NCBI GenBank assembly: GCA_018649885.1
Contig: JABIHA010000041.1
Coordinates: 1-53,764, forward strand
Direction of reading: 5' to 3'
Origin: Bacteriovoracaceae bacterium
GTDB lineage: Bacteria > Bdellovibrionota > Bacteriovoracia > Bacteriovoracales > Bacteriovoracaceae
DNA: 53,764 bases
Shown here: positions 1 through 51,261 of the stretch, piece by piece
Numbering within the stretch: the first letter of the stretch is position 1
Layout of the letters: each line of letters opens with the position of its first letter
The notes under the pieces: model-generated
Databases searched by the model: none
What the model was told of the DNA's origin: nothing
Seen by the model: only the letters and a program-made list of their open reading frames with translations
Translations under genes and position numbers: made by a program

Positions 1-9
1 GGTAAAAAC

Positions 10-540
10 GTGGTAAGCTGCTGGAGCGCTTGGAGGTTAGAAGTGATGATTGAGAAAATGAGTGATGATAAATTATTAAAAAGTGTTCTACTAGAAGTTA
101 AAAAAGAGCTTTTCCCTAAATTAAAAGTCTCTAAAAAAATCTTGGAACTTTTAAATGAGCTGCAAGATCTCACTGGGGAGGATCAGACCAAATTACTTGA
201 AGTGTCCCTTGAAAATAAACTAAAACAAGTTAAAAAATGTGAATTAAAAGCAATTCTAAGGCCTTCTCCAATACAAAGTGTCAGGTCTAGGTATATTTCT
301 CAAGTCATAAAAAGAAAAATTCGAAAAAGAGCAAACTACACCTGCGAGCATGTTAGCATGCACAGAGGGAGGTGCGCTGAATCCAGAAACCTGGAATTTG
401 ATCACCACATCATCCCCTATTCAAAAGGAGGGAAAAATACATTGGAGAATTTAAGACTTGTATGTAGGAACCACAATACCAGGCAATTTGTTTTAGACTT
501 TGGGACCGAATCATTAGAAAAAATCACTCAGAAAAATTAG
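10..540 (+). CDS. HNH endonuclease-domain protein (frame open from position 1, possibly 5'-partial)
   Basis: C-terminal CEH..GRC...LEFDHHIIPYSKGGKNTLENLRLVCRNHN is a typical HNH motif. Confidence 0.85.
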   Translation: MVSCWSAWRLEVMIEKMSDDKLLKSVLLEVKKELFPKLKVSKKILELLNELQDLTGEDQTKLLEVSLENKLKQVKKCELKAILRPSPIQSVRSRYISQVIKRKIRKRANYTCEHVSMHRGRCAESRNLEFDHHIIPYSKGGKNTLENLRLVCRNHNTRQFVLDFGTESLEKITQKN

Positions 541-754: not shown

Positions 755-1390
755 TTAGCCTACAACTTGCTGCTTTCCAATTTCAACACCACTTATAAAT
801 GCTTTAGTATTGATTTCTTTGAATTTGGGAGGCATTTTTTCGGAGATGATTCCCCAGAACTCGTCCATATTGCATGGAAGAAGGCCACTTCCCAAGAGGC
901 ATCCTAGGAAGACCATGTTGAGGGCCTTTTTTTCTCCGGCCTTTTCTGCTAGCTCTGTAGCATCTATGACACTGACTTTTGATGTTTTGGATTTAACGTC
1001 TTTAATGAGATCTGAAACTTCAGGGTATTTTCCATCGCCTTTTTTGTGGATGTATTCTTGTCCCAAGACAAAAGGCAAAATGGGTGTGGAGTTCATGAAG
1101 ACCACACTTTTACTGGACATAGAGTTCAGGGCCCTTGCCGTTTCAGCTGGTTCAAGGCCAAGAACTACGTCGGCATCTCCATTTTTAAGGGCAGAGCTTA
1201 GGCCGCAATTTACAAGAACGGCTGCTTGAACACTGCCGCCTCTTTGGGCCATACCGTGAAGTTGAGAGCTCACTACATCAAGGCCCATTTCAACAAGTGT
1301 TTCTGTTAGTATGCTGGCTGCGGTAAGAACACCTTGGCCACCTGTTCCTGCAAATAGAATTCTCGTTTTTACAGCGCTATTGTTTTGCAC
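755..1390 (-). CDS. iorB: Indolepyruvate:ferredoxin oxidoreductase beta subunit
   Basis: GTGGQG, HGMAQRGGSV and EPAE motifs; overlaps the iorA stop. Confidence 0.93.
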   Translation of the reverse strand: MQNNSAVKTRILFAGTGGQGVLTAASILTETLVEMGLDVVSSQLHGMAQRGGSVQAAVLVNCGLSSALKNGDADVVLGLEPAETARALNSMSSKSVVFMNSTPILPFVLGQEYIHKKGDGKYPEVSDLIKDVKSKTSKVSVIDATELAEKAGEKKALNMVFLGCLLGSGLLPCNMDEFWGIISEKMPPKFKEINTKAFISGVEIGKQQVVG

Positions 1391-3263
1391 AAGCTTCTCC
1401 AGATTTACTTATAATTGATATAGCATCAGTGTGACAGCCTCTTGCACAAAGATCACAACCGTCACAAAGCTCTTCGTCAATTGTGTATACCCCATCAACT
1501 ACTAAAATGGCCGGACAACCCAACTGACGAACACAAAGAGAGCACTCGGTGCAAAGCTCTTGGTCAATTTGGTAGGCCTCTCTTTTTTCTTTAGTGATTC
1601 TATTTTTATGTATTACACATGGGGAGTTGCAAATGACGACATTGACTCCCTCTGAGTTTTTTACATCCTTTAAAGCAGTCAATATTTCAGTTTCATTGAA
1701 AGGATCAACCAGGTGCACCTTTTTGACTCCCACTCCTTTAACTGCATCTTCAATAGAGAAGTGGGCAAGCTCTGCTTTCACCTCAATGTCAGGATTATTG
1801 CTGGAAGTGAGACTGGGTTGGAATCCAGTCATTGCTGTAATGTAATTATCTAGAATAACAACAGTGATATTATCATTTGCCTGAACAGCGTTAGCTAGGG
1901 CCGGTAGTCCACTGTGAAAAAAGGTAGAATCCCCAATGTAGGCCACAGTTCTTTTTTTAGTAACTCTCGATATTCCACTGGCCTGGGAAATTGATGATCC
2001 CATACATAAGAGCATATCGCAGGCGTTGAGTGGTTCTCCGTAGCCTAGAGTGTAGCAGCCGATATCATTGCAATATACAGTCTTCTTACCAAAGACTTTA
2101 TTGACCATGTGAAAACTGGTTCTATGTGGACATCCAGGGCATAGGACAGGAGGTCTTGCGGGAAGCTCAGTCTGCGGAGCCTCTTCTACCTCTTCCATCT
2201 CCTCTAAATTCAAAAAGGCCCTGATCCCCTTTTCAGCTAACTCTGGAGACGATTCAAATTCCCATGGGAAGTGATTGCTGAGTTTTCCAAAAACATCTTT
2301 TTGAATTTTATTTTTAAATAAGTAAAGGCTCACCCACTCTTCTACAAATGGAGTTAGCTCTTCAACTACTAAAATGTCATCTACCTGTGTACAAAAACTA
2401 TCAATGATTTTTTCAGGGATAGGATAAGCTCCAATTTGCTGAAGGCACACACTATCCCAGAGGTTTAAATCATCTATTACTTGGTGAGCATAAGTGTAGG
2501 CAACTCCACTTGCAATGATTCCTTTTTTTCCAGAACCTGATCTGGGGAAAAAGTTAGATTCACCAAGGAGCTCCTCAGCCAATTTCATTCTCTGGGTGAG
2601 CTCGACTCTCATTCTTCTAGCATTGACGGGAATGGGTACATATTTTTGAGGGTTCTTTGTAAAACCCACTTCTTTTTTTTCACTTGGTAAGTCACCCATC
2701 TCAACCATCCCAGTTGAATGGCAAACTCTGGTTGTAGGTCTCATAATAACCGGGAGTCTTGTTTTCTCTGAAAACTCAAAAGCGTACTTAGTCATTTGGA
2801 GAGCATCATCAGCAGTAGCGGGATCAAAAATAGGATAATAGAGAAATTTATTTAAATGCCTTTGATCTTGCTCATTGGGGCTTGTTAAGCATGATGGGTC
2901 GCCTGCTGAAACAATTACCATTCCCGCTTCAACTCCAACGTAAGGCATGGTAGACACGGGATCTCCGGCTGACATTAAACCAAGGTGCTTCATACTACAC
3001 ATTGAACGAGCTCCTGCCAGACTAGCGGCATAAGCAATTTCAACGGCTATTTTTTCATTCACTGAATATTCAAATTCAATACCCATTTCGCGAGAAATTT
3101 TTGCAGTGGTATCGGCAACTTCGGAGGAGGGAGTTCCGGGGTAGCAAGAAAAAAACTGGACTCCAGCTTCGAGACCGCCACGAACAATGGCGTTATTTCC
3201 CAGCAGGCTGGCCTTTGAGCCTTTTTTTTCTAAAAGTTTGATACTTTTGGTGGATGCACCCAT
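1377..3263 (-). CDS. iorA: Indolepyruvate:ferredoxin oxidoreductase alpha subunit
   Basis: LGNNAIVRG, YPGTPSSE, NEKIAVE, RPPVLCPGCPHR, DIGCYTLG and the TPP motif GDSTFFHSG; C-terminal 2x[4Fe-4S] motifs; AGGAG RBS at 3269-3273. Confidence 0.95.
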   Translation of the reverse strand: MGASTKSIKLLEKKGSKASLLGNNAIVRGGLEAGVQFFSCYPGTPSSEVADTTAKISREMGIEFEYSVNEKIAVEIAYAASLAGARSMCSMKHLGLMSAGDPVSTMPYVGVEAGMVIVSAGDPSCLTSPNEQDQRHLNKFLYYPIFDPATADDALQMTKYAFEFSEKTRLPVIMRPTTRVCHSTGMVEMGDLPSEKKEVGFTKNPQKYVPIPVNARRMRVELTQRMKLAEELLGESNFFPRSGSGKKGIIASGVAYTYAHQVIDDLNLWDSVCLQQIGAYPIPEKIIDSFCTQVDDILVVEELTPFVEEWVSLYLFKNKIQKDVFGKLSNHFPWEFESSPELAEKGIRAFLNLEEMEEVEEAPQTELPARPPVLCPGCPHRTSFHMVNKVFGKKTVYCNDIGCYTLGYGEPLNACDMLLCMGSSISQASGISRVTKKRTVAYIGDSTFFHSGLPALANAVQANDNITVVILDNYITAMTGFQPSLTSSNNPDIEVKAELAHFSIEDAVKGVGVKKVHLVDPFNETEILTALKDVKNSEGVNVVICNSPCVIHKNRITKEKREAYQIDQELCTECSLCVRQLGCPAILVVDGVYTIDEELCDGCDLCARGCHTDAISIISKSGEACAKQ

Positions 3264-3279
3264 CACTACTCCTTATACT

Positions 3280-3385
3280 TATACTGATCCCAGTTTGAAT
3301 TTCAAGTGGTGTATTCCTCATCGGAGTGTGCTTACACGCCTTCTTCGTCATCCACTCACTTGAAATCCAAACTGGAATCAGTATA
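3280..3385. repeat. 106-bp ERIC/MITE-like inverted-repeat element with TATAC...GTATA ends
   Basis: Arms 3280-3308 and 3357-3385 are reverse complements at 27/29 positions; a small internal hairpin lies at about 3323-3340. Confidence 0.8.
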
Positions 3386-3571
3386 TTCTTTGTACAACCA
3401 CTTAAATTCCAAAATATAAAATTGATGGTTTGAGAAAAACCGTATTCAATTTTCATGAAAAAATACATGAGCCCCATCATGTAACCCCAGTAATAAATAG
3501 GTAAAAATTCTCCTGAACAAAAAGTAGCGACCATCTGCATTGCGACGAATCAAAAACAATGTCTGATTCCA

Positions 3572-3600
3572 TTGACAAAAGGGCCATGCATGAGTAGTTT
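3572..3600 (+). promoter_or_regulatory. sigma70 promoter of the tetR-bcr operon
   Basis: TTGACA (3572-3577), 17-nt spacer, TAGTTT (3595-3600). Confidence 0.7.
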
Positions 3601-3603
3601 TCT

Positions 3604-3625
3604 ACATACTGACCAGTTGGTATGT
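3604..3625. promoter_or_regulatory. Putative TetR operator
   Basis: Imperfect palindrome ACATACTGAC-CA-GTTGGTATGT (8/10 arm match) covering the expected transcription start, just upstream of tetR. Confidence 0.7.
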
Positions 3626-3668
3626 TTGAGTTTGGCTTTTAATTACAAGTAGTTATAGGGAGTTTTCT

Positions 3669-4280
3669 ATTTTATCATCACGCTCAGAAACGACTATTTC
3701 TACCATCCTCGAAAGGGCCTCTGAGCTCTTTATTGCCAAAAACTATGCTGACGTAACCATGGATCAAATTGCTGGAAGTGCAAAGGTGACAAAGGGTGCC
3801 CTCTATCATCACTTCCCTAGTAAAGAGGCCTTGTATCTTCGTCTGATGCAAGACGATTTGAATTCAAAGAAACAATGTTTTGAAAAAGCTGTCACAAAAA
3901 GCGATAGCTGCCGCGAAAGACTCTACCAATTAACCTATGAGTTTTTCTGCTTGCCCAGACCCAAGCAAGAGCTAATTAGATTAATTAGAAGAGATAATAA
4001 TATTTTTAATGGTGATGTCAGATCCCTGTTAATTCAATCCTACCAAGAGTCTCTTCCCCAAATAATAGAACAAGTGATTAAAGACGGAATTGAAAACGGT
4101 GAACTAAAAGAAGGTGATCCCAGACTCCTGTCTTGGTTTTACGTCTCTTTAATTGAATGCACATTAAGACCATACTCAGATCAAATATTTGAAGATATCA
4201 ACTCAAAAATTGAGCACACCCTGGATTTCTTTTTTACTGGGGCCTGTACAAAAACGAAGAGGAATGAACATGAGCTTTGA
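3669..4280 (+). CDS. TetR/AcrR family transcriptional regulator (probable ATT start; first ATG is at 3759)
   Basis: HTH MDQIAGSAKVTKGALYHHFPSKEALY. The in-frame upstream segment RSETTISTILERASELFIAKNYADVT corresponds to TetR helix 1. Confidence 0.88.
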   Translation: MLSSRSETTISTILERASELFIAKNYADVTMDQIAGSAKVTKGALYHHFPSKEALYLRLMQDDLNSKKQCFEKAVTKSDSCRERLYQLTYEFFCLPRPKQELIRLIRRDNNIFNGDVRSLLIQSYQESLPQIIEQVIKDGIENGELKEGDPRLLSWFYVSLIECTLRPYSDQIFEDINSKIEHTLDFFFTGACTKTKRNEHEL

Positions 4281-5433
4281 AACTTTCCCCGAATGGCGAG
4301 GCAAAGAACTAGATGAGATTCTCTACGAGTGTAGAGAATTACTTGAAGACACTGAATACCCTACCATTAACAGATGGAGACAAAATGGGGGAAAGGTAGC
4401 TGGTCATTTTCAGGTCTACTTTCCCGAAGAAATTGCTCACGCAGCTGGTATGCTTCCAGTTAAAATGGGTGGTGCTCCCGTTGAGCCCAATAGTGCTGAC
4501 TCTCATTTTGGATCTTATCTTTGCTCAATTATAAAAACCTCTCTCGAAGTGGCCTTAAATGAAAAGGTGAAGCTAGATCTTTTTATCTCTCATCCTATAT
4601 GTGATGCTGCTAGAAATTTGGCGGCGATATTTGGGAGAAACTTCGACTATCCTTGCCAGATTCTATACCTTCCTCAAAATCCCAATTCATCACATAGTCT
4701 TCAATACCTCACTGATGAGTATGGAAGACTCAAGAGGCTTGTCGAGGAAATTACAGGAAATAAAATTACTGATGAAAAACTTCGGGCATCTATTGAAGTC
4801 TACAACCAAAATAGGCAATACCTGCGAGAAATTTACGACATTAAACGTGATACACCATGGCTTCTGACAGCTGATGAGGGTTACGCCCTACTTGCTATTG
4901 GTGGACTTATTCCAAGAGAAGAACACAACGAAGTATTAAAAACAGTAATCCCTTTAATTAAAAGTAGAGTCAGAAAAAAAGAAGATCGAATCAGACTTGT
5001 TTTTGAGGGAGGATTTTGTGAGCAGCCACCTCTAGATCTTATTCGGATGCTGGGTCAAACTTGCTACCTTGTGGATGATGATTTTTTAATTGGAATGCGC
5101 TGGATTTTATCAGATGTAAGTTTGGAGGGTGAACCTCTTAGAAATCTTGCACACTCCTATCTTGAAGACTCAAGCTATAGCCCTGTTCAACACGATAACA
5201 GAAAACCCAAAGAAGAAATGTTACTCAAAAGAATCGAAGCTTGTGATGCTGGAGCTGTCATTATTGCGGCGGCAAAAATGTGTGAGCCAGGCCTTGAAGA
5301 GCAGGTTGCCTATACCCACGAATTAGATAGAAAGGGAATCCCCTACTTTGTCACTGAGTTTGAAGAGAATATGAATTCCTTTGATCACTTAGAAATGCAA
5401 GTAGACACCTTTTTAGAAAATTTATTATTTTAA
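4270..5433 (+). CDS. bcrC: Benzoyl-CoA reductase subunit C-like (BcrC/BadD/HgdB family)
   Basis: FPEEIAHAAGMLP, SYLCS, ICDAARNL, ITDEKLRASIEVYN, FCEQPPL and KMCEP motifs recall Thauera BcrC; GAGG RBS precedes ATG 4270. Confidence 0.8.
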   Translation: MSFETFPEWRGKELDEILYECRELLEDTEYPTINRWRQNGGKVAGHFQVYFPEEIAHAAGMLPVKMGGAPVEPNSADSHFGSYLCSIIKTSLEVALNEKVKLDLFISHPICDAARNLAAIFGRNFDYPCQILYLPQNPNSSHSLQYLTDEYGRLKRLVEEITGNKITDEKLRASIEVYNQNRQYLREIYDIKRDTPWLLTADEGYALLAIGGLIPREEHNEVLKTVIPLIKSRVRKKEDRIRLVFEGGFCEQPPLDLIRMLGQTCYLVDDDFLIGMRWILSDVSLEGEPLRNLAHSYLEDSSYSPVQHDNRKPKEEMLLKRIEACDAGAVIIAAAKMCEPGLEEQVAYTHELDRKGIPYFVTEFEENMNSFDHLEMQVDTFLENLLF

Positions 5434-5454
5434 AAAAAATTGTGAGGAGTTAAT

Positions 5455-6747
5455 ATGAATTCAACACCTGAAAATAAAATTGTCGGAAGAGGAAACCGTG
5501 ATGGTGCCGCCCTTTTTCGAGATTGGTACAATGATCTATCCCAAACGGCCGAGACAGATGGAAGGGCCGCCTATGTTTTTGTTATGGGTAGTTTAAATGA
5601 AATTTTAAAATCCTTTGATATGCCGGTTGTTTTTCCTGAGATTAATTCTCTTCAAACAGCTGTAAGAAGAGTCGCCCATGACTACCTTGATGAAGCGGAA
5701 GATCACGGCTACTCTCCAGATATTTGTGGCTACGTCAAAGCCGACTACGCCGTTCAAAAAAGAGGTGGTGAACACCCCATGGGAAAAATCCCCAAGCCAT
5801 CAATCGCTGTTTTAACAAATGCCTGTAACACCTATATAAAATGGGCCGAAATTTGGGAGAGAATGTATGACATTCCAATTTTCACCATGGATATTCCAGG
5901 CACAAGGCAAGGCGGAAAACCTTCACTCGAAGGTAGTGTAGATTTTGAAAATGACCGCCGATACGTTGAGGCCCAAATTAGAGAGCTGATCACTCTTTGT
6001 GAAAAAGTCACAGGGAAAAAATTTGATATCGACAAACTCAGAGAGGTCTTAAAAAATACTAACTCTCTTCACTCTAGTTGGGAAAAAGTTATCACTCTCA
6101 ACCAAAATACCCCTGCTGTATTTAATGCCCTAACGGATGGAACAATCTTTTTGGGTGTGGCCAATGGCCTTAAAGGAACTCCAGAAGGTGCAAAATACTT
6201 CAAAGAGCTAGTAGAAGAAATGGAGTACAAAGTAAAAAATGGGATCGGCACATTAACTGAAGAGCAGTACCGCTTAGTTTTTGTAGGAGTTCCCTGTTAC
6301 CCCATTTTTAGACGCTTTAATGAGCTCTTTACCGATTGGGGTGGAACATTTATCAACTCAACATATCTTTGGTTCGCTTCAGGTGGCGCCAACAGAGGAT
6401 TCCAATACGATTTAGAAGATCCTATAAAAAGTCTTTCCATTGGACTTTTAATGAGTGTACGAGATGCTATGGACAGTATGTTTCATCAAGAAATTATGGT
6501 CGAGTCCATGGTCAAAGACTTCAAAATCGATGGCATTATCTATCACCCCATAAAAAGCTGCAGGACTGTTTCAACAGGTCTTGCTGATAGTCGCTACCAT
6601 CTTTCCAAAAAGATTGATGTACCCAGCCTATTTATTGAATCAGACATGATGGACCGCCGGGTTGTTACCGAGGCCCAAATGAAAAATAGAATTGATGCAT
6701 ATTTTGAAGGACTCGCCTCACGCAGACAAAGAATGGGCGCACATTAA
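5455..6747 (+). CDS. bcrB: Benzoyl-CoA reductase subunit B-like (BcrB/BadE/HgdA family)
   Basis: GSLNEI, DICGYVKAD, KFDIDKLRE, IKSCR and FIESDMMD motifs with three conserved Cys ligands. Confidence 0.8.
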   Translation: MNSTPENKIVGRGNRDGAALFRDWYNDLSQTAETDGRAAYVFVMGSLNEILKSFDMPVVFPEINSLQTAVRRVAHDYLDEAEDHGYSPDICGYVKADYAVQKRGGEHPMGKIPKPSIAVLTNACNTYIKWAEIWERMYDIPIFTMDIPGTRQGGKPSLEGSVDFENDRRYVEAQIRELITLCEKVTGKKFDIDKLREVLKNTNSLHSSWEKVITLNQNTPAVFNALTDGTIFLGVANGLKGTPEGAKYFKELVEEMEYKVKNGIGTLTEEQYRLVFVGVPCYPIFRRFNELFTDWGGTFINSTYLWFASGGANRGFQYDLEDPIKSLSIGLLMSVRDAMDSMFHQEIMVESMVKDFKIDGIIYHPIKSCRTVSTGLADSRYHLSKKIDVPSLFIESDMMDRRVVTEAQMKNRIDAYFEGLASRRQRMGAH

Positions 6748-6763
6748 AGCTAAGGAGTAAAAA

Positions 6764-7579
6764 ATGGCCTACGCAGCTGGTGTTGATGTTGGATCAACCC
6801 AAACTAAAGCAGTCATTATTGATGAAAATAGAAAAATCGTTGGACGTGCCCTAACAGACACCGGCGCCAATGTGATTCAGGCAGCACAAAATTGTTTTGC
6901 CATTGCTCTCAAAGATTCAGGCCTCCCTGAAGAAGAAGTTGAGTATGTCATAGGCACTGGTTATGGCCGCTATAAAGTGACTTTTGGAAATGCCCAGATC
7001 ACCGAGATTAGCTGTCATGGTCGAGGTGCTGTTCATATGTTTCCAAAGACTAAAACAGTTGTGGACATGGGTGGCCAGGACACCAAGGCCATCAGTGTGG
7101 GACCAGACGGTGATATTATTGATTTCTGTATGAACGATAAATGCGCAGCCGGCACGGGACGTTTTCTAGGAGCTGCCTCCATGGCCTTAGATATTCCTCT
7201 AGATGATCTTGGACCGACAGCACTAAAGTACAACCGGCCAGTGAAAATATCCACCACCTGCACAGTTTTTGCAGAATCAGAAGTACTCTCCTGGCTCGGT
7301 AAAGGAAAAAAAATTGAAGACATCCTATGGGGAGTCCACCAATCGATTGCCTCACGATCAGCTGGTTTAATGAGAAGAGTTGGAGTTGAGGACGAAGTTA
7401 CTTTCACAGGTGGTGTCACAAAAAATGTCGCCATGGTTAAAGCACTGGAAGAAAGACTTGGTAAACAGCTCAATGTAAGTGATGACTCCCACTACATGGG
7501 TGCACTTGGGGCCTCACTTTTTGCCCTCGATCATATTATCTCCAGCAGAACCCCTCAACTTGAAAAGGAGAATGCCTAA
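6764..7579 (+). CDS. ASKHA-type activator ATPase subunit (BadF/BadG/BcrA/BcrD family; BzdQ/HgdC-like)
   Basis: [34 protein letters not shown] and CTVFAESE motifs. Confidence 0.92.
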
Positions 7580-8403
7580 TGTCTACTATCACGGCCGGAA
7601 TTGATGTTGGCTCCACCTACACAAAAACAATTTTATTAGATGAGAATCAAAAAGTACTCGCCAAAGATCTTAGGCATACTGGTTTTAAGCTCAAACAAGT
7701 AGCAAGAGAATCTTTCGATGCCTGTATTGCCAGCATTGGAAAAAAAGAAAGCGATATTGATTATATTGTGGCCACTGGAACTGGAAGACACCTAGTTGAT
7801 TTCAAAGACTTGGCCGTTACTGATATTACGGCCACTGCCAGAGGAACGACTCACCTTTTCCCTAAAACCCTTACAGTCCTTGATATTGGTGGCCAAACCA
7901 TGAAGTCATCAAGGCTAGACGAAAATAAGAAAGTTCTCTCTTTTAGACTAAATGATAAGTGTGCAGCCGGCACTGGAGCCTTCTTAGAAAAGACAGCAAA
8001 GTATATGGGTTTCCAAACAGAGGAAATCAGTCCCCTCTTATCAACATCAAAAGAGCCGGTTCCCATCTCTGGGGTCTGCGCAGTTTTTGCTGAATCAGAA
8101 GTCATCAACCACCTCTCCCTTGGTGCACCTCCTTCAGATATTATGCAAGGAGCGATCGAGTCCCTTGTAAGCCGAGCACTTCAACTTATAAAACGAGTGA
8201 AAGGTGAGCCGGAGTTTACTCTGGTTGGTGGCATCATGAGATTTACCACCATGGCAGATTCTATTCACAAGCAACTTGAAAAAGATGTCAATGTTCCACC
8301 TGAGGATATGGTCCAATTTATGGCCTGCCTAGGAGCCGCCATATTGGCCGGGATTCGACTTGAAAAAGTAGGAAGAACAACTGAAGCAGTGGCACAAGCT
8401 TAA
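7579..8403 (+). CDS. Second ASKHA-type activator ATPase subunit (BcrD/BzdP-like)
   Basis: [25 protein letters not shown] and CAVFAESE motifs; TAATG coupling to the previous gene. Confidence 0.92.
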   Translation: MSTITAGIDVGSTYTKTILLDENQKVLAKDLRHTGFKLKQVARESFDACIASIGKKESDIDYIVATGTGRHLVDFKDLAVTDITATARGTTHLFPKTLTVLDIGGQTMKSSRLDENKKVLSFRLNDKCAAGTGAFLEKTAKYMGFQTEEISPLLSTSKEPVPISGVCAVFAESEVINHLSLGAPPSDIMQGAIESLVSRALQLIKRVKGEPEFTLVGGIMRFTTMADSIHKQLEKDVNVPPEDMVQFMACLGAAILAGIRLEKVGRTTEAVAQA

Positions 8404-8404
8404 G

Positions 8405-8641
8405 ATGGCCGTGGATGAAAAAGAAATTAAAGGCTGCCCCAAACTTCTTAGTGAAGGCTGGAAAAAGAGACACCTAGTCGACCCTGACAGGGCAGCTGAA
8501 TCCATAGAGCTCTATGAAAGCATGGGACTCGAGGCCATCGCCAAAAAACTAGACCCTAAAGACCTCGGTGATAGCTGCGAAGGGTGCAAAAGTGCTCTTT
8601 GCACCAACTATCTAATGGTTTACACCAAAGTCAAAAAATAG
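8405..8641 (+). CDS. Small Cys-containing hypothetical protein closing the bcr-like operon
   Basis: Starts 1 nt after the previous stop; contains GCP and CEGCxxxxC. Confidence 0.75.
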   Translation: MAVDEKEIKGCPKLLSEGWKKRHLVDPDRAAESIELYESMGLEAIAKKLDPKDLGDSCEGCKSALCTNYLMVYTKVKK

Positions 8642-13154: not shown

Positions 13155-13802
13155 TTAGTGGGAGTCACCTTTTTGTAGATCGCGACGAATATCCATCCAG
13201 ATCTGATAATAGCGCCAGGCCGGAGGGTCATCAGCTCTGACTTTATGATCGGGCCTTAAGTTCAAACTTCCTGTCGCTAAAAGAGTTTGTTTTACTTTAG
13301 GGTTCTGATTTAATTTAGAAAGCATCGCTTCTTTAATAACTTGGTAGTGATCACTTTTTTCAGAAGTTCTGTAGACCATTTCCACCCCTTCAAAGGTTAC
13401 CCAGTTGATTCCCATCTTCTTCATCACTTTAGAGCCAAACCCTCCAGCCTTTTTAGCGGTGTGCCCATCCATTTTTTCCACTTCTGCTCTTGTGAATGGC
13501 CACTCGGCTTTTGAAAAACGTGGATCAGATTTACTTTCAGGATATTTCATAGACTGCCAAAGACCTTCAAGGCTTGGGTATTTCTTTTTTCGGAAAACAA
13601 AAGGTGTTGCTGCAAAATTTGATAGCAGCCCCAGTTCATTTCTCTTACTGAGAACAACCTCACCTTTTTTGGCACTATCAGGAGAAATCTCCCACCATTT
13701 AAGATCTTCTTTGGGAACAGGTTTCCACCAGTGAGTTGGATACTGTGCATGTGCAGAAAATAAAAATGAGCTGATTAGAAATAGAAAAAATGTGTTCTTC
13801 AC
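13155..13802 (-). CDS. NADAR (YbiA/DUF1768-like) N-glycosidase domain protein with signal peptide
   Basis: LSNFAATPF, YPSLEGLWQSMKY, AKKAG and SKLNQNPKVKQTLLATG motifs; N-terminus (GTG)KNTFFLFLISSFLFSAHA. Confidence 0.8.
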   Translation of the reverse strand: MKNTFFLFLISSFLFSAHAQYPTHWWKPVPKEDLKWWEISPDSAKKGEVVLSKRNELGLLSNFAATPFVFRKKKYPSLEGLWQSMKYPESKSDPRFSKAEWPFTRAEVEKMDGHTAKKAGGFGSKVMKKMGINWVTFEGVEMVYRTSEKSDHYQVIKEAMLSKLNQNPKVKQTLLATGSLNLRPDHKVRADDPPAWRYYQIWMDIRRDLQKGDSH

Positions 13803-13876
13803 CCTGCCCCCCAAGCGTAGCATTGACCCTCTAAACTCCTACCGATTATTGGACCAAGGTGTCAAGAGACTGCGGG

Positions 13877-16282
13877 TTATGCCGCTGAATAGGCCCACTC
13901 AAGTTCCGGTAATTGGGTGCTACCCATGGATGGATCTAGCTCCAACCTTTCAATGAACTCTGGAATACTCTCATAGGGAAGAGGAAGATCATTGTCTTGT
14001 AAAACCTTGATCATCTCAATAGGATCAAAAGAATCAATGAACGTCTGTGTATCTTGCTCATATGCCCAACTAGGTACGACTTCAGCAAAGGCAATTCCTT
14101 TGTACTCTGTTCCAGCTGAAGTGATAGCACGATCTCCTGAGGTCCCTTCCCAAACTCTTGCATAAAAAGAGAGGTGTGATCTTGGAATATTTTGAATGTT
14201 ACCAGTGGCACTTTTGTCACTAAAAGCTTCGATCTGTTTCATTTTTTTAGCTGCTGCTTTAATTCCATAACTTCCATTTCCCATTCCTCTTCTTAGACGA
14301 ATGATTGGTACTCCACTTTTACCTAAAATTCTTGTAGCCTCACTAAAAGCATTTGGGCCATCAGCTATAATCACCTCAGGTTTTCCTTGTTTTAAAACTT
14401 CGCCTAAAACTCTTTGTCTATACTGAGATGTTTGAGCTAATACTGTAGCCCACTCCTGTTTTGTGGCACCGTCCATTCCGAAAGGAATAGTTTTAAAAAC
14501 TAGGTACTGATCAGATACACCCATGTCTTCCATCAGGCCGTGAAGGTATTGCCCTCTCTCTCCAGTTAAGGCCCTGGCCGTAACGATATCATCATATCCA
14601 ATGGGGTCAGCTAAGATTAGAACTCTAGGATTTTTAAAAGTTCCTCTGTAGTGTCCAAAAGCTGCAACATTGGGGTGTGTTTTGACATTGTAAGCATCGA
14701 TGCCATCACTCTTCCAAGACATTTCTTCTTTTTCATCAAATATTTTTTTAAGATCAAGATTTTCGACCATTAATTTTGCAAATTTTTCTCCTGGTCCTGG
14801 ATCAAATACATAACGCAGGTCCAGTGAAGAAGGTCTTGCGATAAATAAATTACTTTGATCAATCCCCTCAGCAGCTTTAGCACTAGTCATCTTCTGAATA
14901 GCCGACTTTGAAAAGCGGCCATTATCTCTGGTTCCGATAATGACTACATGGGCGTTCCCAGACATTCTCCTGGCAGTTGATTTAGATACCATTCTATTTT
15001 TTGGAGTTCCAAAATCATAAAACTCTGGCCCAATATCAGATCTTCCATATTTATAGTTCTCGCCTTTAGAGTAGTAGTTAATTTTTCCCGGATCGGCTTT
15101 AATGCTCCATCCTTTCTCAGCGTAAATATCAAGATCTTTTACATTACTCATAACTCTTTCTGAAGCCTTGAGCTCTCCTATTGCCCAAGTCTTTGCCTCC
15201 CTGACTGTACGAGTTAAGCTACTTGGATGAGGAAGAGAAATAACAATAAGATCGTTTTCGATGACTGATCCATCATCAAGCTTAAGTCCTTTAAGAGATC
15301 TTGTGTAAGCTCCATCAATCATCATTTTTCTTAAATCATAGCCACCTAATTGAGCCGCATTAATTAGACCATTGTTATAGGGGCCACCCTTAGTAAAAAC
15401 CATTTTGTCTAAGTAATCTTCTAAGTTGTTTGCAAGTGAGCGCTCTACCTTTCTTTGATTAGATGACTTTGAATAATCCACATACTCACCCAGCACGTTC
15501 TCATAGAGATCACTCCCGTCTCTTGCAACTAGTGAGGAATAAGTATTGTTTGCTCCTGCATACTCAACCTTTGTCTCAGGAACTTGGATATCTTTCATTT
15601 TATCTTCATTGTAGGCCTCAACACTGGCACCCTTACTTCTAGCGTAAGTAGCAATCGAGTCACGAGCTGCTCCACCAAACAATACAATCAACTTCATAGA
15701 TTGTTTATTGTTTCTGATAATCCAATCGATAAGCTGATTTCTCCATTTAACAATGGGGCTATTTAAATTTTGTGAAATAAGCCATAGTTTGTTGTCCACG
15801 AGGTTACTAAGCCGAACTGAAGCACCACTACTTTTTTTATAAATATAGGGAGTATTGTAGACTCCGTACTGTCCTTTTATTGTAAAAGAATATGAATTAA
15901 TAAAAGCGGCTCCCTCGGCAACACCAAAGTAGTTAGCAAGGTCTTGGGTACGGCCACCAAATCCAGCGGTTGCAGGCCTTCCCGCGGCTTCGGCAATATG
16001 GGTTCCGTCTTGGCCAATAAAGAGAATTTTTACCTTTCCCTCATCTGGAAGCATTCTCCAAGGGATAGGACCAAAGGCCGGTCTAAATTTTTGTTTTCTT
16101 CCTATGATTTGCTTTGATACCAGTGGCATATTGGGAATATTCGCCGTTATGTCAATCAACTCTTTTCCCATTTTTGTATCAGGACTCGGACCTGGGTCGT
16201 AAGACCAAAGAGGCATTTTCGCCTGTAATTGAGTGGATAAAAATAGAGTGGCAAAAAGAAACAAAACATTTACGCGTTGCAT
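13877..16282 (-). CDS. Secreted protein with two tandem uracil-DNA-glycosylase (BdiUng-like) domains
   Basis: Signal peptide. Domain 1: YDPGP, FGPIPWR, KILFIGQD, GGRTQ, FINSY..IKGQ, LFGGAA, PHPS. Domain 2: FDPGP, HYRG, RVLILADP, RALTGERGQ. Confidence 0.75.
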   Translation of the reverse strand: MQRVNVLFLFATLFLSTQLQAKMPLWSYDPGPSPDTKMGKELIDITANIPNMPLVSKQIIGRKQKFRPAFGPIPWRMLPDEGKVKILFIGQDGTHIAEAAGRPATAGFGGRTQDLANYFGVAEGAAFINSYSFTIKGQYGVYNTPYIYKKSSGASVRLSNLVDNKLWLISQNLNSPIVKWRNQLIDWIIRNNKQSMKLIVLFGGAARDSIATYARSKGASVEAYNEDKMKDIQVPETKVEYAGANNTYSSLVARDGSDLYENVLGEYVDYSKSSNQRKVERSLANNLEDYLDKMVFTKGGPYNNGLINAAQLGGYDLRKMMIDGAYTRSLKGLKLDDGSVIENDLIVISLPHPSSLTRTVREAKTWAIGELKASERVMSNVKDLDIYAEKGWSIKADPGKINYYSKGENYKYGRSDIGPEFYDFGTPKNRMVSKSTARRMSGNAHVVIIGTRDNGRFSKSAIQKMTSAKAAEGIDQSNLFIARPSSLDLRYVFDPGPGEKFAKLMVENLDLKKIFDEKEEMSWKSDGIDAYNVKTHPNVAAFGHYRGTFKNPRVLILADPIGYDDIVTARALTGERGQYLHGLMEDMGVSDQYLVFKTIPFGMDGATKQEWATVLAQTSQYRQRVLGEVLKQGKPEVIIADGPNAFSEATRILGKSGVPIIRLRRGMGNGSYGIKAAAKKMKQIEAFSDKSATGNIQNIPRSHLSFYARVWEGTSGDRAITSAGTEYKGIAFAEVVPSWAYEQDTQTFIDSFDPIEMIKVLQDNDLPLPYESIPEFIERLELDPSMGSTQLPELEWAYSAA

Positions 16283-44826: not shown

Positions 44827-45432
44827 ATGAAGAAGCTTATACTAACATTCATTACATCAACACTTCTTTTGGTGGCTGGAGACTCTTTTGCTATTGCTGA
44901 ATATCTCCCAGGCTTTATTTCTATCTATCCAAAGACTGTGGACACACCACTAAATGACTGTACTATTTGCCATCGCAGTGGCAGAGGTGGCCTTCTCAAT
45001 TCCTATGGGCTTGAATTCGTCATGAACGAATACAATTTTAAAAACATAGAAAGCCAAGATTCTGATGGTGATGGAGTGGTAAATATCGACGAGATTATTG
45101 CTCTTACCCACCCCGCGGATGGACCAAATGATCAAATAAAGGCCTTTATATTTGATAAAAAAGGATATATGGGAAAAGTGCGATTTGATCACACTGCTCA
45201 TCAATATAAAGGCCAATACATGTCGGGTGGAAACTGCGCAAGCTGTCACCAAAATGGTGATTTTTCCAAGTTCATCAGCTTTACCACAAATGGTGATGAT
45301 AGAAAGGCAAAGGCCCATGGTCTTTGTTATGGATGTCACACTGAGGCCAATGGTTATGGCAATACCAATGCTCCGATGGTTTGTGACCAATGTCACAAAG
45401 CCGATGACGGTGGAGTTTGGAGCGAGCCTTAA
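44827..45432 (+). CDS. Tetraheme cytochrome: monoheme/DxDxDG domain fused to a c7 (PpcA-like) triheme domain
   Basis: CTICH and DSDGDG, then VRFDHTAH, CASCH, AHGLCYGCH, PMVCDQCH. Confidence 0.88.
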   Translation: MKKLILTFITSTLLLVAGDSFAIAEYLPGFISIYPKTVDTPLNDCTICHRSGRGGLLNSYGLEFVMNEYNFKNIESQDSDGDGVVNIDEIIALTHPADGPNDQIKAFIFDKKGYMGKVRFDHTAHQYKGQYMSGGNCASCHQNGDFSKFISFTTNGDDRKAKAHGLCYGCHTEANGYGNTNAPMVCDQCHKADDGGVWSEP

Positions 45433-45449
45433 AAATAGTTTCATTGAAA

Positions 45450-45477
45450 TATTGTGGCGGTTCGCGTCGCCACAATA
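45450..45477 (+). other. Intergenic stem-loop (terminator or mRNA stabiliser)
   Basis: TATTGTGGCGG-ttcgcg-TCGCCACAATA. Confidence 0.55.
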
Positions 45478-45580
45478 AGTAATCTGGCTACTTCAGTCAT
45501 GTACAAGCCATCCATTTAGTCATAATATTTTACGGCTCCATTTCATGGATACGATCAGTTAGGGAAATACAGGGAAGAAG

Positions 45581-46795
45581 ATGCTCTCTTTTCTATTCTT
45601 TTTGGGTTTACTATTACCCCAAGACCTCCAGGCGTTAGTCTCCTTTGAGTCTCGCCTGACAAGTGGTTATTACCGTGACTCCATTAAGAAAAACCATCTC
45701 ACTCTCAACTACAATTGGCGTTTTAACTACACCCATCAAAGCGGTGTAGAAACTTTTATCGACTTTGGGGTTAACAATAACTTTGTCCAAGATGAGTGGG
45801 GACTCTACCCCTACCAAGCCTATGTTTCGATTCCACTAGCTGAGGCCTTTGAAAAAACACCATTTCACATTCCAAGGGTTCAAGTGGGTCGTCAACTGCT
45901 GACCGATGGATTTGAATTTGCGCTAATTGACGGAGCTGTAATGCCCTATTACTTCTCTCCCCGCCTATACGCAAAGCTCTTTGCAGGAGCACTTCATATC
46001 CCCGAGGACACTCCTGAAAATAGTTTTAATGACCAGCTCTACGGCGGAAGTTTGAGCTACAGATTGAGCGGGGCCATCTTAAAAGGCGGCGGCATATTTA
46101 AACAAAACCAAAGTGCTGAACGCTACTTAAGTTATTTCACTATCTATAAAAACTTTGAAGCTCTTCCTCTAACTCCTGGAATCCTGATAAAAGAGCAATT
46201 CGATGTCAAAGAGAAATCACACGACCAGTCACTGATCGAACTTCGCGCTCACCTAGCAAAAATCAGCGGGACACTTTTCCACTCCTCTAGAAGAGTAGAC
46301 CCCCTACTTTCACAAAAAAAACGTTTGATTTACCAGCTATTCGCTGTAGACAAGCAAAAGAGCTTTGGCACCACAGGTACCTGGGATATTCATGAAATGC
46401 TTCAAATCGAGGGACGATTTGAAAGAGTCGAATACCACTCGAGAGTGAGAAAAGAAATTGGTGATCAAGGAACAGGATCTCTGATTATCGGAAACAATAA
46501 TTACTCTATTTCTCCTTTTCTTACCAGGCTATCTTCCTATGGCGGGTACTTCTGGGATTATGGACTCAGCTCTAAAATTAGATTAAAACGAGAGCTAAGC
46601 CTTGAGCTTGAAAGTAACACTATTAAATATAAAAAGATTAACGGGATGTCTGGCTTTGCTTATCACGCATTGGCCGGCATAAGTTTAGTTTTTCCACCCA
46701 ATTGGCAGGCCAAAGCATTAATTGAGCTGGAAAGAAATCACTTGTACAAACTTGATTCGAGGGCACTATTTCATGTCTCGCATTTTTATTTCTAA
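45581..46795 (+). CDS. Putative outer-membrane beta-barrel porin of the cytochrome cluster
   Basis: Signal peptide, no Cys, amphipathic strands, RVQVGRQ..IDGA motif, C-terminal HFYF. Confidence 0.75.
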   Translation: MLSFLFFLGLLLPQDLQALVSFESRLTSGYYRDSIKKNHLTLNYNWRFNYTHQSGVETFIDFGVNNNFVQDEWGLYPYQAYVSIPLAEAFEKTPFHIPRVQVGRQLLTDGFEFALIDGAVMPYYFSPRLYAKLFAGALHIPEDTPENSFNDQLYGGSLSYRLSGAILKGGGIFKQNQSAERYLSYFTIYKNFEALPLTPGILIKEQFDVKEKSHDQSLIELRAHLAKISGTLFHSSRRVDPLLSQKKRLIYQLFAVDKQKSFGTTGTWDIHEMLQIEGRFERVEYHSRVRKEIGDQGTGSLIIGNNNYSISPFLTRLSSYGGYFWDYGLSSKIRLKRELSLELESNTIKYKKINGMSGFAYHALAGISLVFPPNWQAKALIELERNHLYKLDSRALFHVSHFYF

Positions 46796-47378
46796 GCAAC
46801 TAGTATTGCTTACAATATGTTTAAATCTATTTCCCATCTCCTTATACGCTGAGAAGGGAAAGCCTGCACTTATTAAAGAGCTATCGATCCTCTTTTCTCA
46901 TAAAAAACATGCTGAATCATTTAGTGACATGAAAATTTCTTGCAAAGATTGTCACAATTTCTCTATAAAACCCAGTGAGAAAGGTCCTCTGGGAGAGCTT
47001 ATTGAAGAGTCGGCCCTAAAACCGGCCAGGCAAATTTGTCACCAATGCCATCAGGGAAAAGTTATGGTCCCGACTCCCAACCGCTGTACACTTTGCCATC
47101 TGCCTTCAAAAGATTTGAAGCCTAATGATCATTTTATTAGTTGGAAAAATCGCCACGGCCAAATGGCCCAAATGGATAGTGACTCTTGCAAGAAATGCCA
47201 CTCCAAAAATGATTGCTCAGATTGCCACCTTCAAAGAAATGGCCATAGCGTTCGAGTCCACCGTGGTGGGTTTCGCTTCACCCACTCTATGGAAGCAAGG
47301 CTTAACCCCAATAAATGTACAACCTGTCACCAATCCACTGGCTTTTGCCTTGATTGCCATATGGGGAAGAACAGATGA
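46773..47378 (+). CDS. Periplasmic heptaheme cytochrome c (c3-like N-terminus)
   Basis: Signal peptide, FSHKKH, 7 CXXCH. Confidence 0.92.
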   Translation: MSRIFISKQLVLLTICLNLFPISLYAEKGKPALIKELSILFSHKKHAESFSDMKISCKDCHNFSIKPSEKGPLGELIEESALKPARQICHQCHQGKVMVPTPNRCTLCHLPSKDLKPNDHFISWKNRHGQMAQMDSDSCKKCHSKNDCSDCHLQRNGHSVRVHRGGFRFTHSMEARLNPNKCTTCHQSTGFCLDCHMGKNR

Positions 47379-47668
47379 AGCTTAGAAACCTCATTTTATA
47401 TTTTAGTTTGATAATAGTTGTTTCTTGTAATGATGAACCAAAGGGTGAGAATTATCAGCTTAAAAGCAGCGATGATTTAATTTTAACAGCAGATAATCAT
47501 CCCCATGGATTTACTTATCAAAATTGCTTTTACTGTCACGTAAAGGCCAATATTCACCAAGAAGATCGCTTGGGTACTAATCTTTTAGAACTGGCCCGTG
47601 AGCTGACGGCCGTACAGGGTTTGGGATCATGCCAAATGTGTCACGGGGTTAATGGTGTGAGTCCATGA
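47375..47668 (+). CDS. Diheme cytochrome c lipoprotein
   Basis: Lipobox VVSC; CFYCH and CQMCH; ATGA coupling. Confidence 0.88.
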   Translation: MKLRNLILYFSLIIVVSCNDEPKGENYQLKSSDDLILTADNHPHGFTYQNCFYCHVKANIHQEDRLGTNLLELARELTAVQGLGSCQMCHGVNGVSP

Positions 47669-48189
47669 AGTTAATTTTTTTAATCCTCCTCATTTTTCCT
47701 TTGGCCCTAGGTGCAAAAACCGCAAAAAAATTTCAACTTGTAAGGTTGGACCCCCATGGAGAACTAGGTGTGGCCCTATCGACTTCTAGGCTTAACTCAA
47801 ATAGTGAATGCATGGTCTGTCACATCAGCTCAGACTCAACTACAAAGGCCAGTGCAATATATTCCAATATCTCTATCCGCTGCACGGCCTGCCACAATAA
47901 GTCCCCTCACAGTGGGCTCAAAGAACATTTGGGACGTGAGCTATCAAATCTCAAATTGGGACTCAAAGGAAAAATTGACTGCATAAGCTGTCATCGTTCC
48001 CACAGGGAGAAAACTGCAAGTGACAAAAAACTTTTGGGGAAAAACCTAGACTCACCCAAAGGGGCTTCATTTATTTACACAAAAAAAGAGCCTATCGCTT
48101 TGAAAAAGGGTAAAATAGCCAGAAGAAGTAGATTTCCAATGTTAAAAAGGACTTGTGTAAATTGTCACACAAATCACGGATACCAATAG
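47665..48189 (+). CDS. Tetraheme cytochrome c
   Basis: Signal peptide; CMVCH, CTACH, CISCH, CVNCH. Confidence 0.9.
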   Translation: MKLIFLILLIFPLALGAKTAKKFQLVRLDPHGELGVALSTSRLNSNSECMVCHISSDSTTKASAIYSNISIRCTACHNKSPHSGLKEHLGRELSNLKLGLKGKIDCISCHRSHREKTASDKKLLGKNLDSPKGASFIYTKKEPIALKKGKIARRSRFPMLKRTCVNCHTNHGYQ

Positions 48190-50273: not shown

Positions 50274-50416
50274 TTGATTTGAAAACTATTTTAGAGAAAA
50301 AAAGAAATCGAATCATCATAAGAGTTGCTGGAGTTATCATTGGTTTTTTAGGAAGCGCATTTATCATTTTCCAAGTGCTCTTTCTCTACCGGGTTCTCCC
50401 CCATGGAGGACTATAG
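50270..50416 (+). CDS. 48-aa single-TM microprotein (not in the ORF track)
   Basis: ATGA overlap upstream and stop abutting the next GTG; MIDLKTILEKKRNRIIIRVAGVIIGFLGSAFIIFQVLFLYRVLPHGGL. Confidence 0.7.
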   Translation: MIDLKTILEKKRNRIIIRVAGVIIGFLGSAFIIFQVLFLYRVLPHGGL

Positions 50417-51148
50417 GTGAAGAAGCTTTGGAAGAAATTTCTCCCCCTTCTATCATTTATGATTCCCTCTTTAATTGGAGGCGGACTTGTTGGGATCTAT
50501 CCCGGCTATAAAGTCTACGAGTATGTGTGGAAAGACGCCGCTTTTTGTACCTCGTGCCACGTTCACGACTACGCCACTGTTGGCTGGGAAAATAGCTCCC
50601 ATCAAAGACTGACCACCTGCCATGATTGTCATCACCAACCCCTACACGAATATGTTAGAGAGATGGTTGTGCTTCTTACAAAGAATCCTAAATTCCCAAA
50701 AGACTTAGACCATATCCCCTATATTCCAGATGATTTATGTCAAGCCTGCCATATTAGTAATCACCAGGACCTCTCCACTGTAACTGGACCTCTGGATAAG
50801 GAAGATATTGATAAATTGCACAAAGTTGATAAAACAAAAATGCATCAACTCCACTTCCAACACAAAACTAAATTGAAGCTTCTGGGAGAATTTAAAATAA
50901 AAAAGATTGACCGTATGGGAGATGTTGCGATCATACCGAGTAATGAAGAAGGTAAAGAAAGACCCATAACCTGTAGTGACTGTCATGGAGGTCCAAGTAA
51001 CAGGGCCCACAACTTCAGTGCCACTGATAGTGCCTGTGTCAGGTGTCACCAAGATGAGCATAAGAAAAAAATTGGTAAAGAATTCGGATGTCGAAACTGT
51101 CACTTTCAAGATTTCATGATTCCTACCAGTAAAAACCCCACAAAATAA
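50417..51148 (+). CDS. NapC/NirT-like membrane-anchored hexaheme cytochrome c
   Basis: N-terminal TM, then FCTSCH..W..SSH...CHDCH as in NapC/NrfH; 6 CXXCH. Confidence 0.85.
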   Translation: MKKLWKKFLPLLSFMIPSLIGGGLVGIYPGYKVYEYVWKDAAFCTSCHVHDYATVGWENSSHQRLTTCHDCHHQPLHEYVREMVVLLTKNPKFPKDLDHIPYIPDDLCQACHISNHQDLSTVTGPLDKEDIDKLHKVDKTKMHQLHFQHKTKLKLLGEFKIKKIDRMGDVAIIPSNEEGKERPITCSDCHGGPSNRAHNFSATDSACVRCHQDEHKKKIGKEFGCRNCHFQDFMIPTSKNPTK

Positions 51149-51261
51149 CCTTAAGTGTCTAATATTATGTCTAATTTACCCCCTTTTCCCTTCAAAAGTT
51201 TTCTTAAGAACTTCCTCTAAACACCCGAAGATTTGTTAGGTCTTACTAAAAAGTTGAGTAA

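Follow-up and report, generated by a model that had tools for sequence, protein, structure and literature searches.

A 3-methylbenzoyl-CoA reductase-type operon in a Bacteriovoracaceae genome with ring-cleavage genes on a second contig

The closest described relatives of the genes treated here are class I benzoyl-coenzyme A (CoA) reductases. The 3-methylbenzoyl-CoA reductase (MBR) type has been described from Thauera chlorobenzoica, according to the available text of PMC11971306, and the enzyme MbdONPQ is represented by the structures PDB 9g87, 9gai, 9gal and 9gba. A second type, the Thauera-type BcrCBAD, belongs to the same reaction class. Here we compare with these systems an operon on the plus strand of a stretch of 53,764 nucleotides from a Bacteriovoracaceae bacterium (contig JABIHA010000041.1 of assembly GCA_018649885.1), to which we refer as the window; G000 denotes the source genome, C40 the contig of the window, and C3, C132 and so on other contigs of G000. 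Judged by its sequence, the operon codes for a class I benzoyl-CoA reductase of the MBR type rather than for a dehydratase. We consider it likely that the intact reductase, whose genes are preceded by a TetR gene and operator, dearomatises benzoyl-CoA for the genes had-oah-dch on C3, and that the adjacent genes iorAB, which code for an indolepyruvate:ferredoxin oxidoreductase (IOR), are a separate system which at most feeds electrons. The operon comprises the following genes:

3669..4280, plus strand: TetR-family repressor, ~203 aa, probable ATT start (PF00440)
4270..5433, plus strand: MbdN-like (BcrC-type) subunit of the catalytic module, 387 aa (9g87_B, E 1e-160)
5455..6747, plus strand: MbdO-like (BcrB-type) active-site subunit, 430 aa (9g87_A, E 9e-160)
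6764..7579, plus strand: MbdQ-like ATPase/activator subunit, 271 aa (9gai_D, E 2e-125)
7579..8403, plus strand: MbdP-like ATPase/activator subunit, 274 aa (9gai_C, E 1e-81)
8405..8641, plus strand: conserved unnamed CxxC protein, 78 aa, present after mbdP in 63/69 MBR loci

The intergenic gaps from tetR to the 78-aa gene range from -11 to +21 nt, and each of N, O, Q and P is preceded by a ribosome binding site. For the N subunit, ATG 4270 is the most likely start. Pfam identifies two HGD-D subunits and two BcrAD_BadFG ATPases, encoded on the strand opposite to iorAB. Gene order and gaps are thus those of the tight operon, back-to-back with iorAB, that had been noted in the original prediction.

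Each of the four reductase subunits has as its best solved relative the corresponding chain of 3-methylbenzoyl-CoA reductase. The N subunit reaches 539 bits against MbdN versus 123 against HadC and 88 against BzdN, and the O subunit 535 bits against MbdO versus 128 against HadB and 99.5 against BzdO; the MBR scores of N and O are 4–5 times those of HadBC or BzdNO. Hand-counted from the alignments, identity is ~58% to MbdN and ~54% to MbdO. Q scores 421 bits against MbdQ and P 277 bits against MbdP, and with 38% identity to each other they are two distinct short ATPase genes. Like MbdONPQ, the window thus has four one-to-one subunits, short paired ATPases and the Glu/Cys motifs described below. 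It differs from that enzyme in the moderate identity of the catalytic subunits, in the order N-O-Q-P followed by an unnamed CxxC gene, in having tetR as first gene of the operon, in a locus devoid of ferredoxin and ring-cleavage genes, and in that the substrate is one that we infer. With the Thauera-type BcrCBAD the operon shares the reaction class and the order C-B-activator-activator, but its subunits score only 127–252 bits where the BcrC/B/A/D models (TIGR02263/02260/02259/02261) have cut-offs of 313–578, and none of them is a long BcrA of the Thauera type. The BZD-type models TIGR03190/03191/03192 likewise give 89.5, 109.8 and 190 bits versus cut-offs of 454, 449 and 380.

The residues expected of such an enzyme are kept. 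In an alignment of 44 sequences Cys127 and Cys166 of Q are invariant, as are Cys128 and Cys167 of P in its alignment; we take these cysteines to be the ligands of the bridging cluster. The O subunit retains Glu62, Cys91, Cys124 and Cys369, which map by motif to Glu65 and Cys95/128/380 of BzdO, according to the available text of PMC11971306 the catalytic glutamate and the cluster ligands. At the position of BzdO His131, aligned by spacing only, the window O has a tyrosine and MbdO a phenylalanine. In a tree of the O subunit (IQ-TREE; 34 rows picked from 70, all uncharacterised sequences labelled by hidden Markov model score) the window and seven close relatives are grouped with 100/100 support, apart from BcrB and HadB-like rows, and a branch with 100/100 support separates the reductases, the O subunit among them, from the HadB-like rows.

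These relations bear on the alternative that the operon encodes a Stickland-type 2-hydroxyacyl-CoA dehydratase of the FldBC/HadBC kind with a duplicated activator. The radical dehydratases HadBC/HadI and FldBC/FldI do belong to the same superfamily and to the same Pfam families, and the HadB and HadC models match the window subunits at E 1e-45 and 1e-47. Nevertheless, 535–539 bits for MBR stand against 123–128 for HadBC, the dehydratases fall on the other side of the tree and have one activator gene where the window has two, and the HadB-like protein of G000 with its single activator is a different gene, located on C3. We therefore regard a dehydratase as extremely improbable. The structure matches, the Bcr and BZD scores below cut-off, the tree position and the retained Glu/Cys motif together lead to the MBR-type class I assignment. 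The original prediction was therefore right to prefer a class I benzoyl-CoA reductase to a Stickland dehydratase; its labels bcrC and bcrB are apt for the class only, as the subunits are of the MbdN/O/Q/P type and far under the BcrC/B/A/D cut-offs.

It had also been stated that ring-cleavage genes are missing. This is true for the window, where 47 of the 131 listed open reading frames (the longer, non-overlapping ones) were scanned with Pfam and revealed no CoA ligase, crotonase, dehydrogenase or ferredoxin gene, but not for the genome: the search for dch, had and oah that had been proposed located all three on contig C3, where oah (524 bits, cut-off 464) and had (440, cut-off 339) are above threshold and dch adjoins oah. 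Downstream of dch follow an AMP-binding ligase, a dehydrogenase/hydratase fusion, a thiolase, a short-chain dehydrogenase/reductase (SDR) and three hcrCAB-like molybdenum-enzyme genes, whose large and FAD subunits have 4-hydroxybenzoyl-CoA reductase as best model. A divergent set on C3 codes for a single HadB-like subunit, one activator, a PanE-like reductase and a HisC-type aminotransferase. Contig C132 adds a probable glutaryl-CoA dehydrogenase, 51% identical to the acyl-CoA dehydrogenase beside the reductase of the relative G152. The HadB-like subunit with one activator recurs in genomes with benzoyl-CoA genes (G000:C3:32534-36624, found as L011/L012; L114:14306-17236; L030; L202), and in G000 and G152 the PanE-like reductase accompanies it. 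This set is a candidate funnel from aryl-lactate to cinnamoyl-CoA.

Gene content, subunit type, family placement, the genes on C3, the respiratory genes narG and nosZ and the lack of conservation of the ior pairing are directly visible in the data; from these the following course may be envisaged. By analogy with the described enzymes, ATP hydrolysis by the Q/P heterodimer would drive electrons from reduced ferredoxin via the bridging [4Fe-4S] cluster of Q/P to the N/O module, where benzoyl-CoA would be converted by O to cyclohexa-1,5-dienoyl-CoA. Ring opening would then be the task of Dch, Had and Oah, and the thiolase and dehydrogenase of C3 and the glutaryl-CoA dehydrogenase of C132 would lead to acetyl-CoA. 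The benzoyl-CoA could stem from phenylalanine and tyrosine via the aminotransferase, the PanE-like reductase, the HadB-like dehydratase with its activator, β-oxidation and the Hcr-like enzyme. IorAB may oxidise arylpyruvates to arylacetyl-CoA and reduced ferredoxin in parallel to other 2-oxoacid oxidoreductases, and TetR would keep its own operon repressed as long as no aroyl-CoA is bound.

Class I reductases are rare in this family. The O subunit was matched in 4 of 237 family genomes (E<=1e-10), namely G000, G152, G132 and G133. G152 has the same MBR type (75% identity), and its N-O-Q-P genes stand at a distance of one gene from had-oah-dch-ligase-SDR. The set in G132 and G133 is instead of the Thauera type, with BcrC, BcrB and BcrD above cut-off and BcrA at 536 versus 578 bits; the window O and BcrB of G133 are 33% identical. 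Assembled across contigs, their gene order is had-oah-dch-bcrCBAD-ligase-fadB-thiolase-SDR-hcrCAB (oah was not recovered in G133, where the contig begins inside dch). This cluster is colinear with C3 of G000 except that bcr genes are inserted where C3 has none, and no bcr remnant was found in G000. As C3 has the cluster order of G132 and G133 minus bcrCBAD, the comparison suggests that an MBR cassette replaced the Thauera-type bcrCBAD in the G000 lineage, at another site. The ancestor would have carried had-oah-dch-bcrCBAD-ligase-...-hcrCAB in one cluster, as G132 and G133 do; the direction of the swap is read from gene order and not from a rooted tree. NarG is encoded in 16 of the 237 family genomes. 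The four that bear a reductase are all among these 16, but as kin they are not independent cases.

In a wider sample of Bdellovibrionota, 8 of 401 genomes (~2%) match at E<=1e-40: G000, G152 and six genomes of four other families. In these six (G397, G471, G331, G328, G505 and G477; loci L196-L201) BcrB is 73–75% identical to that of G133, with bcrC and bcrA adjacent, and in two of them there is one stop inside the match. L196-L201 suggest a Thauera-type reductase lineage associated with the phylum. Outside the phylum there are at least 580 candidate stretches for the MBR cassette; the counts given here use the best 80 loci, whose O subunits are 68–77% identical to that of the window and are spread over many phyla, among them Acidobacteriota, Planctomycetota and Actinomycetota. 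N and O are present in all 80 loci, Q in 78, P in 73 and tetR in 26, and had or oah lies nearby in 31 (24 of the 44 loci of at least 15 kb). One locus of Gemmatimonadota (L093:1585-5661) has a second four-subunit reductase-like set, 25–39% identical to the window subunits, upstream of its MBR cassette. In the open literature (available text of PMC9376291, PMC10090433 and PMC13690636; supplements and subscription papers lay outside the search) no link between Bdellovibrionota and the benzoyl-CoA pathway was found, and the terms Bdellovibrio, Oligoflex- and indolepyruvate are absent from PMC10803450.

Upstream of the operon the window contains the following features:

755..1390, minus strand: iorB, IOR beta subunit, 211 aa (PF01558; IOR beta models rank first in NCBIfam but stay below cut-off)
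1377..3266, minus strand: iorA, IOR alpha subunit, 629 aa, with thiamine pyrophosphate (TPP) and ferredoxin-like domains (TIGR03336, above cut-off)
3280..3385, no strand: palindromic repeat of ~107 bp resembling miniature inverted-repeat transposable elements or repetitive extragenic palindromes (fold z -7.8; 16 near-full copies on 16 G000 contigs)
3572..3600, plus strand: candidate sigma70-type promoter, TTGACA-17 nt-TAGTTT with a weak -10 (predicted, read from the sequence)
3604..3625, plus strand: predicted TetR operator ACATACTGACCAGTTGGTATGT, a palindrome fitting the MbdR pattern ATAC-N10-GTAT

Because the closest O relatives belong to other phyla and the tetranucleotide fit of the operon ranks in the bottom 7% among 8-kb windows, one might suspect that the contig or the operon is mis-binned or chimeric and derives from another phylum. 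However, the tetranucleotide correlation of the whole contig is 0.994, and the GC content at third codon positions lies inside the genome's 5–95% range. The ~107-bp repeat next to iorA has 15 further copies elsewhere in G000, one of them on C3. Window positions 1-540 are the 3' part of an HNH endonuclease gene, inside which the contig breaks; this family has 21 matches in G000, seven of them paralogues at 84–94% identity, and is multi-copy in 8 of 60 relatives. The shared repeat and the HNH paralogues thus place the locus in the genome G000. Furthermore, in 4 of the 18 listed sequencing runs operon and flank are covered to a similar depth (0-7x, mostly 2-6x), with no piece spanning the stretch, and a second assembly (L134) is identical to the window but may come from the same sample. 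The runs that contain the stretch are metagenomes of marine or seawater origin; two may be the source itself, and no RNA runs are among them. We find a foreign origin scarcely credible. The host itself, which had been presumed to be Bdellovibrionota-like and an unexpected bearer of the enzyme, is confirmed as Bacteriovoracaceae by RecA, whose named matches are Bacteriovoracaceae, Halobacteriovorax and one Oligoflexia record (77–81%), and the reductase is indeed rare there. G000 is 92% complete, has NarG and a clade II NosZ above cut-off, small ferredoxin-like open reading frames and further 2-oxoacid:ferredoxin oxidoreductases on C21 and C146 and at the contig ends of C133, C142 and C12. The repeat is a host genomic repeat between two transcription units and is outside the pathway; it sits upstream of iorA, 14 nt from the start codon, and in other runs has a high summed depth and loose ends.

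The regulatory region can be compared with the mbd cluster of Azoarcus/Aromatoleum sp. CIB, for which the accessible part of PMC4424350 gives ATAC-N10-GTAT as MbdR operator pattern. Both systems have a TetR-family protein and this pattern over a predicted promoter. The window TetR, however, matches MbdR (4uds) weakly and in the helix-turn-helix (HTH) only, at E 2e-6 and outside the top hits; moreover the pathway is distributed over two contigs, and no ABC transporter or ligase gene is nearby. The tetR frame is open from position 3630 and contains no ATG, GTG or TTG before 3759, the reading frame from ATG 3759 codes for 173 aa without helix 1, and homologues reach into the region upstream of it. 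Since no standard start yields a full HTH, tetR probably starts with ATT 3669 behind AGGGAG (3657-3671). The pattern ATAC-N10-GTAT has a single match in the window, with 0.53 expected by chance, and it is its position and conservation, not the match count, that carry weight. A position weight matrix made from seven homologous sites ranks 3604-3625 as top site of the genome (28.9 versus 16.1 bits for the next). Of 24 loci with tetR, 15 have a site of at least 15 bits ahead of this gene, a count that comprises the seven seeds; one of 48 loci without tetR has such a site, and none of 191 control windows does. The putative operator lies just downstream of the promoter candidate, which was not flagged by a scan for the sigma70 consensus, and ~340 bp from the iorA start.

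The original prediction had proposed a compact module in which IOR supplies the reductase with both thioester and electrons. In this alternative IorAB would give the thioester directly, for example from phenylglyoxylate, or the reductase would take arylacetyl-CoA. The adjacency with a common intergenic region speaks for it, as do the co-oriented iorA genes (34–45% identical) within 4 of the 80 MBR loci and the fact that the fused IOR form typical of the family is missing from G000. The latter form, mostly a protein of ~1,130 aa, accounts for most of the IOR-family matches (29–36%) in 163 of 236 Bacteriovoracaceae relatives and is also missing from the three other family genomes with a reductase. 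But the divergent pairing recurs in none of 52 MBR loci with at least 3.5 kb upstream and in none of 12 close IorA loci with at least 3 kb upstream, no reductase match is near IorA in 53 non-self loci (L134, identical to the window, left out), and G152, G132 and G133 have no IorA match (E<=1e-30). In addition, the repeat element parts iorA from the operator. IorAB of known aromatic degraders yields phenylacetyl-CoA, as stated in the available text of PMC9765128 and PMC5109826. Arylacetyl-CoA exceeds the substrate of the reductase by one carbon, and no PadE orthologue that could shorten it exceeds its cut-off in G000, nor does a PaaA; therefore IorAB at most supplies reduced ferredoxin, and this electron supply is possible. 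The proposed pairing is thus not conserved, an outcome that the original prediction itself had named as refuting it; the compact module is very improbable, and IorAB is probably a separately acquired enzyme.

The origin of IorAB is indicated by its relatives. As a two-subunit TPP/Fe-S arylpyruvate oxidoreductase it resembles IorAB of Pyrococcus, Aromatoleum, Desulfococcus and the iaa clusters. IorA scores 668.8 bits against TIGR03336 (cut-off 650.9) and the adjoining IorB 156.6 (cut-off 205.8, IOR-beta models ranked first); IorB is ~50% identical to IorB of indoleacetate-type clusters, and IorA nests with 100/100 support among metagenomic IorA of iaa-like clusters. In its closest relatives (55–67%) a hydantoinase gene follows in 15 of 15 loci with room, and longer loci add an acyl-CoA dehydrogenase, a B12 mutase, a molybdenum enzyme and a CoA transferase. 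Hydantoinase and molybdenum enzyme presumably also carry out steps of the indoleacetate pathway. This gene content fits that pathway, for which a CoA transferase, a mutase and a dehydrogenase are named in the available text of PMC8360864. Complete iorAB-hydantoinase-acyl-CoA dehydrogenase-B12 mutase-Mo-enzyme clusters were also seen in metagenomic contigs (L135-L158); they likely represent an anaerobic tryptophan route with IOR in place of an indoleacetate-CoA ligase. An HMGL-like (PF00682) gene stands directly before iorA(B) near MBR loci of two phyla (L093:13381-16993, L033:14125-16191).

It is thus conceivable that the locus is the remnant of a tryptophan route or serves a tryptophan specialist: iorAB and MBR would be the two ends of an iaa-type route from tryptophan via indolepyruvate and indoleacetyl-CoA to 2-aminobenzoyl-CoA, the reductase acting mainly on substituted aroyl-CoA, with the middle genes unassembled or lost. 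Besides the iaa-type relatives of IorA, the cluster of the sister L028, in which an MBR cassette precedes fadB, thiolase, iorAB and hydantoinase, is in line with this. The contig ends 754 bp beyond iorB in the repeated HNH gene, and the genome is incomplete. On the other hand, the gene after iorB in G000 is this unrelated, convergent HNH gene, so that unlike in the iaa clusters iorAB is detached from hydantoinase, mutase and molybdenum-enzyme genes. A search of G000 for the hydantoinase pair, B12 mutase, acyl-CoA dehydrogenase, CoA transferase and molybdenum enzyme gave distant, scattered matches only (a fused oxoprolinase at 33%, a mutase at 42% among carboxylase genes, a CoA transferase at 25%), and a cluster of ~10 kb would have to be wholly unassembled. 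We judge this reading improbable. IOR and benzoyl-CoA genes also occur together at L073, L178 and L182, and with L028 these loci show that a loose functional link between both recurs, which speaks against pure chance.

Several observations weigh against the preferred reading, in which the reductase dearomatises benzoyl-CoA for the C3 genes and IorAB stands apart. The reductase is known here from its genes, and the substrate preference among MBR-like enzymes is not readable from the sequence. The tree of the O subunit included no characterised MbdO, FldB, HgdA or BzdO. On C3, dch reaches 216 bits and is below its cut-off of 292.5, and all three Hcr-like subunits are below theirs. In the 92% complete genome the best match to benzoate-CoA ligase (TIGR02262) has 193 bits versus a cut-off of 375, which would leave the C3 funnel as the candidate entry route to benzoyl-CoA; an ADP-forming acyl-CoA synthetase above cut-off was not found in G000 either. 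Scans with pattern and matrix found no TetR operator near the C3 cluster, and co-regulation with C3 is thus unsupported. Finally, IOR and reductase share a promoter region, which may reflect selection in this lineage.

The last gene of the operon deserves attention as well. The 78-aa gene follows mbdP in 63 of the 69 MBR loci with room for it and is lacking in six; the remaining 11 of the 80 loci are truncated. It was not found in G152, G132 and G133. The alignment shows an invariant GW, Y-x3-G and CxxC, and a moderately confident model (predicted local distance difference test 78.9) has the topology beta-alpha-beta-alpha-beta. All named ones among its 236 relatives are annotated as 'hypothetical', and there is no sequence match in Pfam, NCBIfam or PDB. 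The model has no Foldseek match at E<=0.001 and the best VIA Z is 4.2, null results which are not evidence of a new fold; in the Atlas it falls into unnamed clusters under 0.9 with a weak likeness to DUF2007. An apparent fusion of MbdP and the small protein in L073 was discarded, as the join is a run of N, and likewise a hit in L053, a weak match on a truncated MbdP. Most likely the protein is an accessory metal-binding or maturation factor and, because G152 lacks it, not an essential subunit.

Two further regions of the window may be mentioned. At 44827-52158 six genes for multiheme c-type cytochromes (c7/c3/paired CXXCH) follow each other, accompanied by unannotated partners, and at 13155-16282 a NADAR/phage GP30.3-like gene adjoins that of an 801-aa protein with a weak match to the UDG superfamily.

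Bdellovibrionota is a mostly predatory phylum, and Bacteriovoracaceae is a family noted for bacteria that prey on others. The enzyme type found here is known and is widespread in uncultured bacteria; not the chemistry is new, but the host is unexpected. Going further, one could imagine a nitrate-respiring Bacteriovoracaceae lineage that mineralises aromatic amino acids by a redox-coupled split: IorAB would oxidise one share of the arylpyruvates and thereby reduce ferredoxin, the C3 funnel would convert the remainder to benzoyl-CoA, and a swapped-in MBR with a fifth, CxxC-containing component would use this ferredoxin to reduce the ring; as a whole we regard this scenario as rather unlikely. 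The CxxC gene may code for a factor of the large MBR clade, involved in maturation or electron transfer, that has so far been overlooked. The family Bacteriovoracaceae appears to offer a natural case in which a Thauera-type reductase was exchanged for an MBR-type reductase within one pathway. With a full predicted benzoyl-CoA pathway and a nitrate reductase, some Bdellovibrionota could degrade aromatic rings without oxygen.

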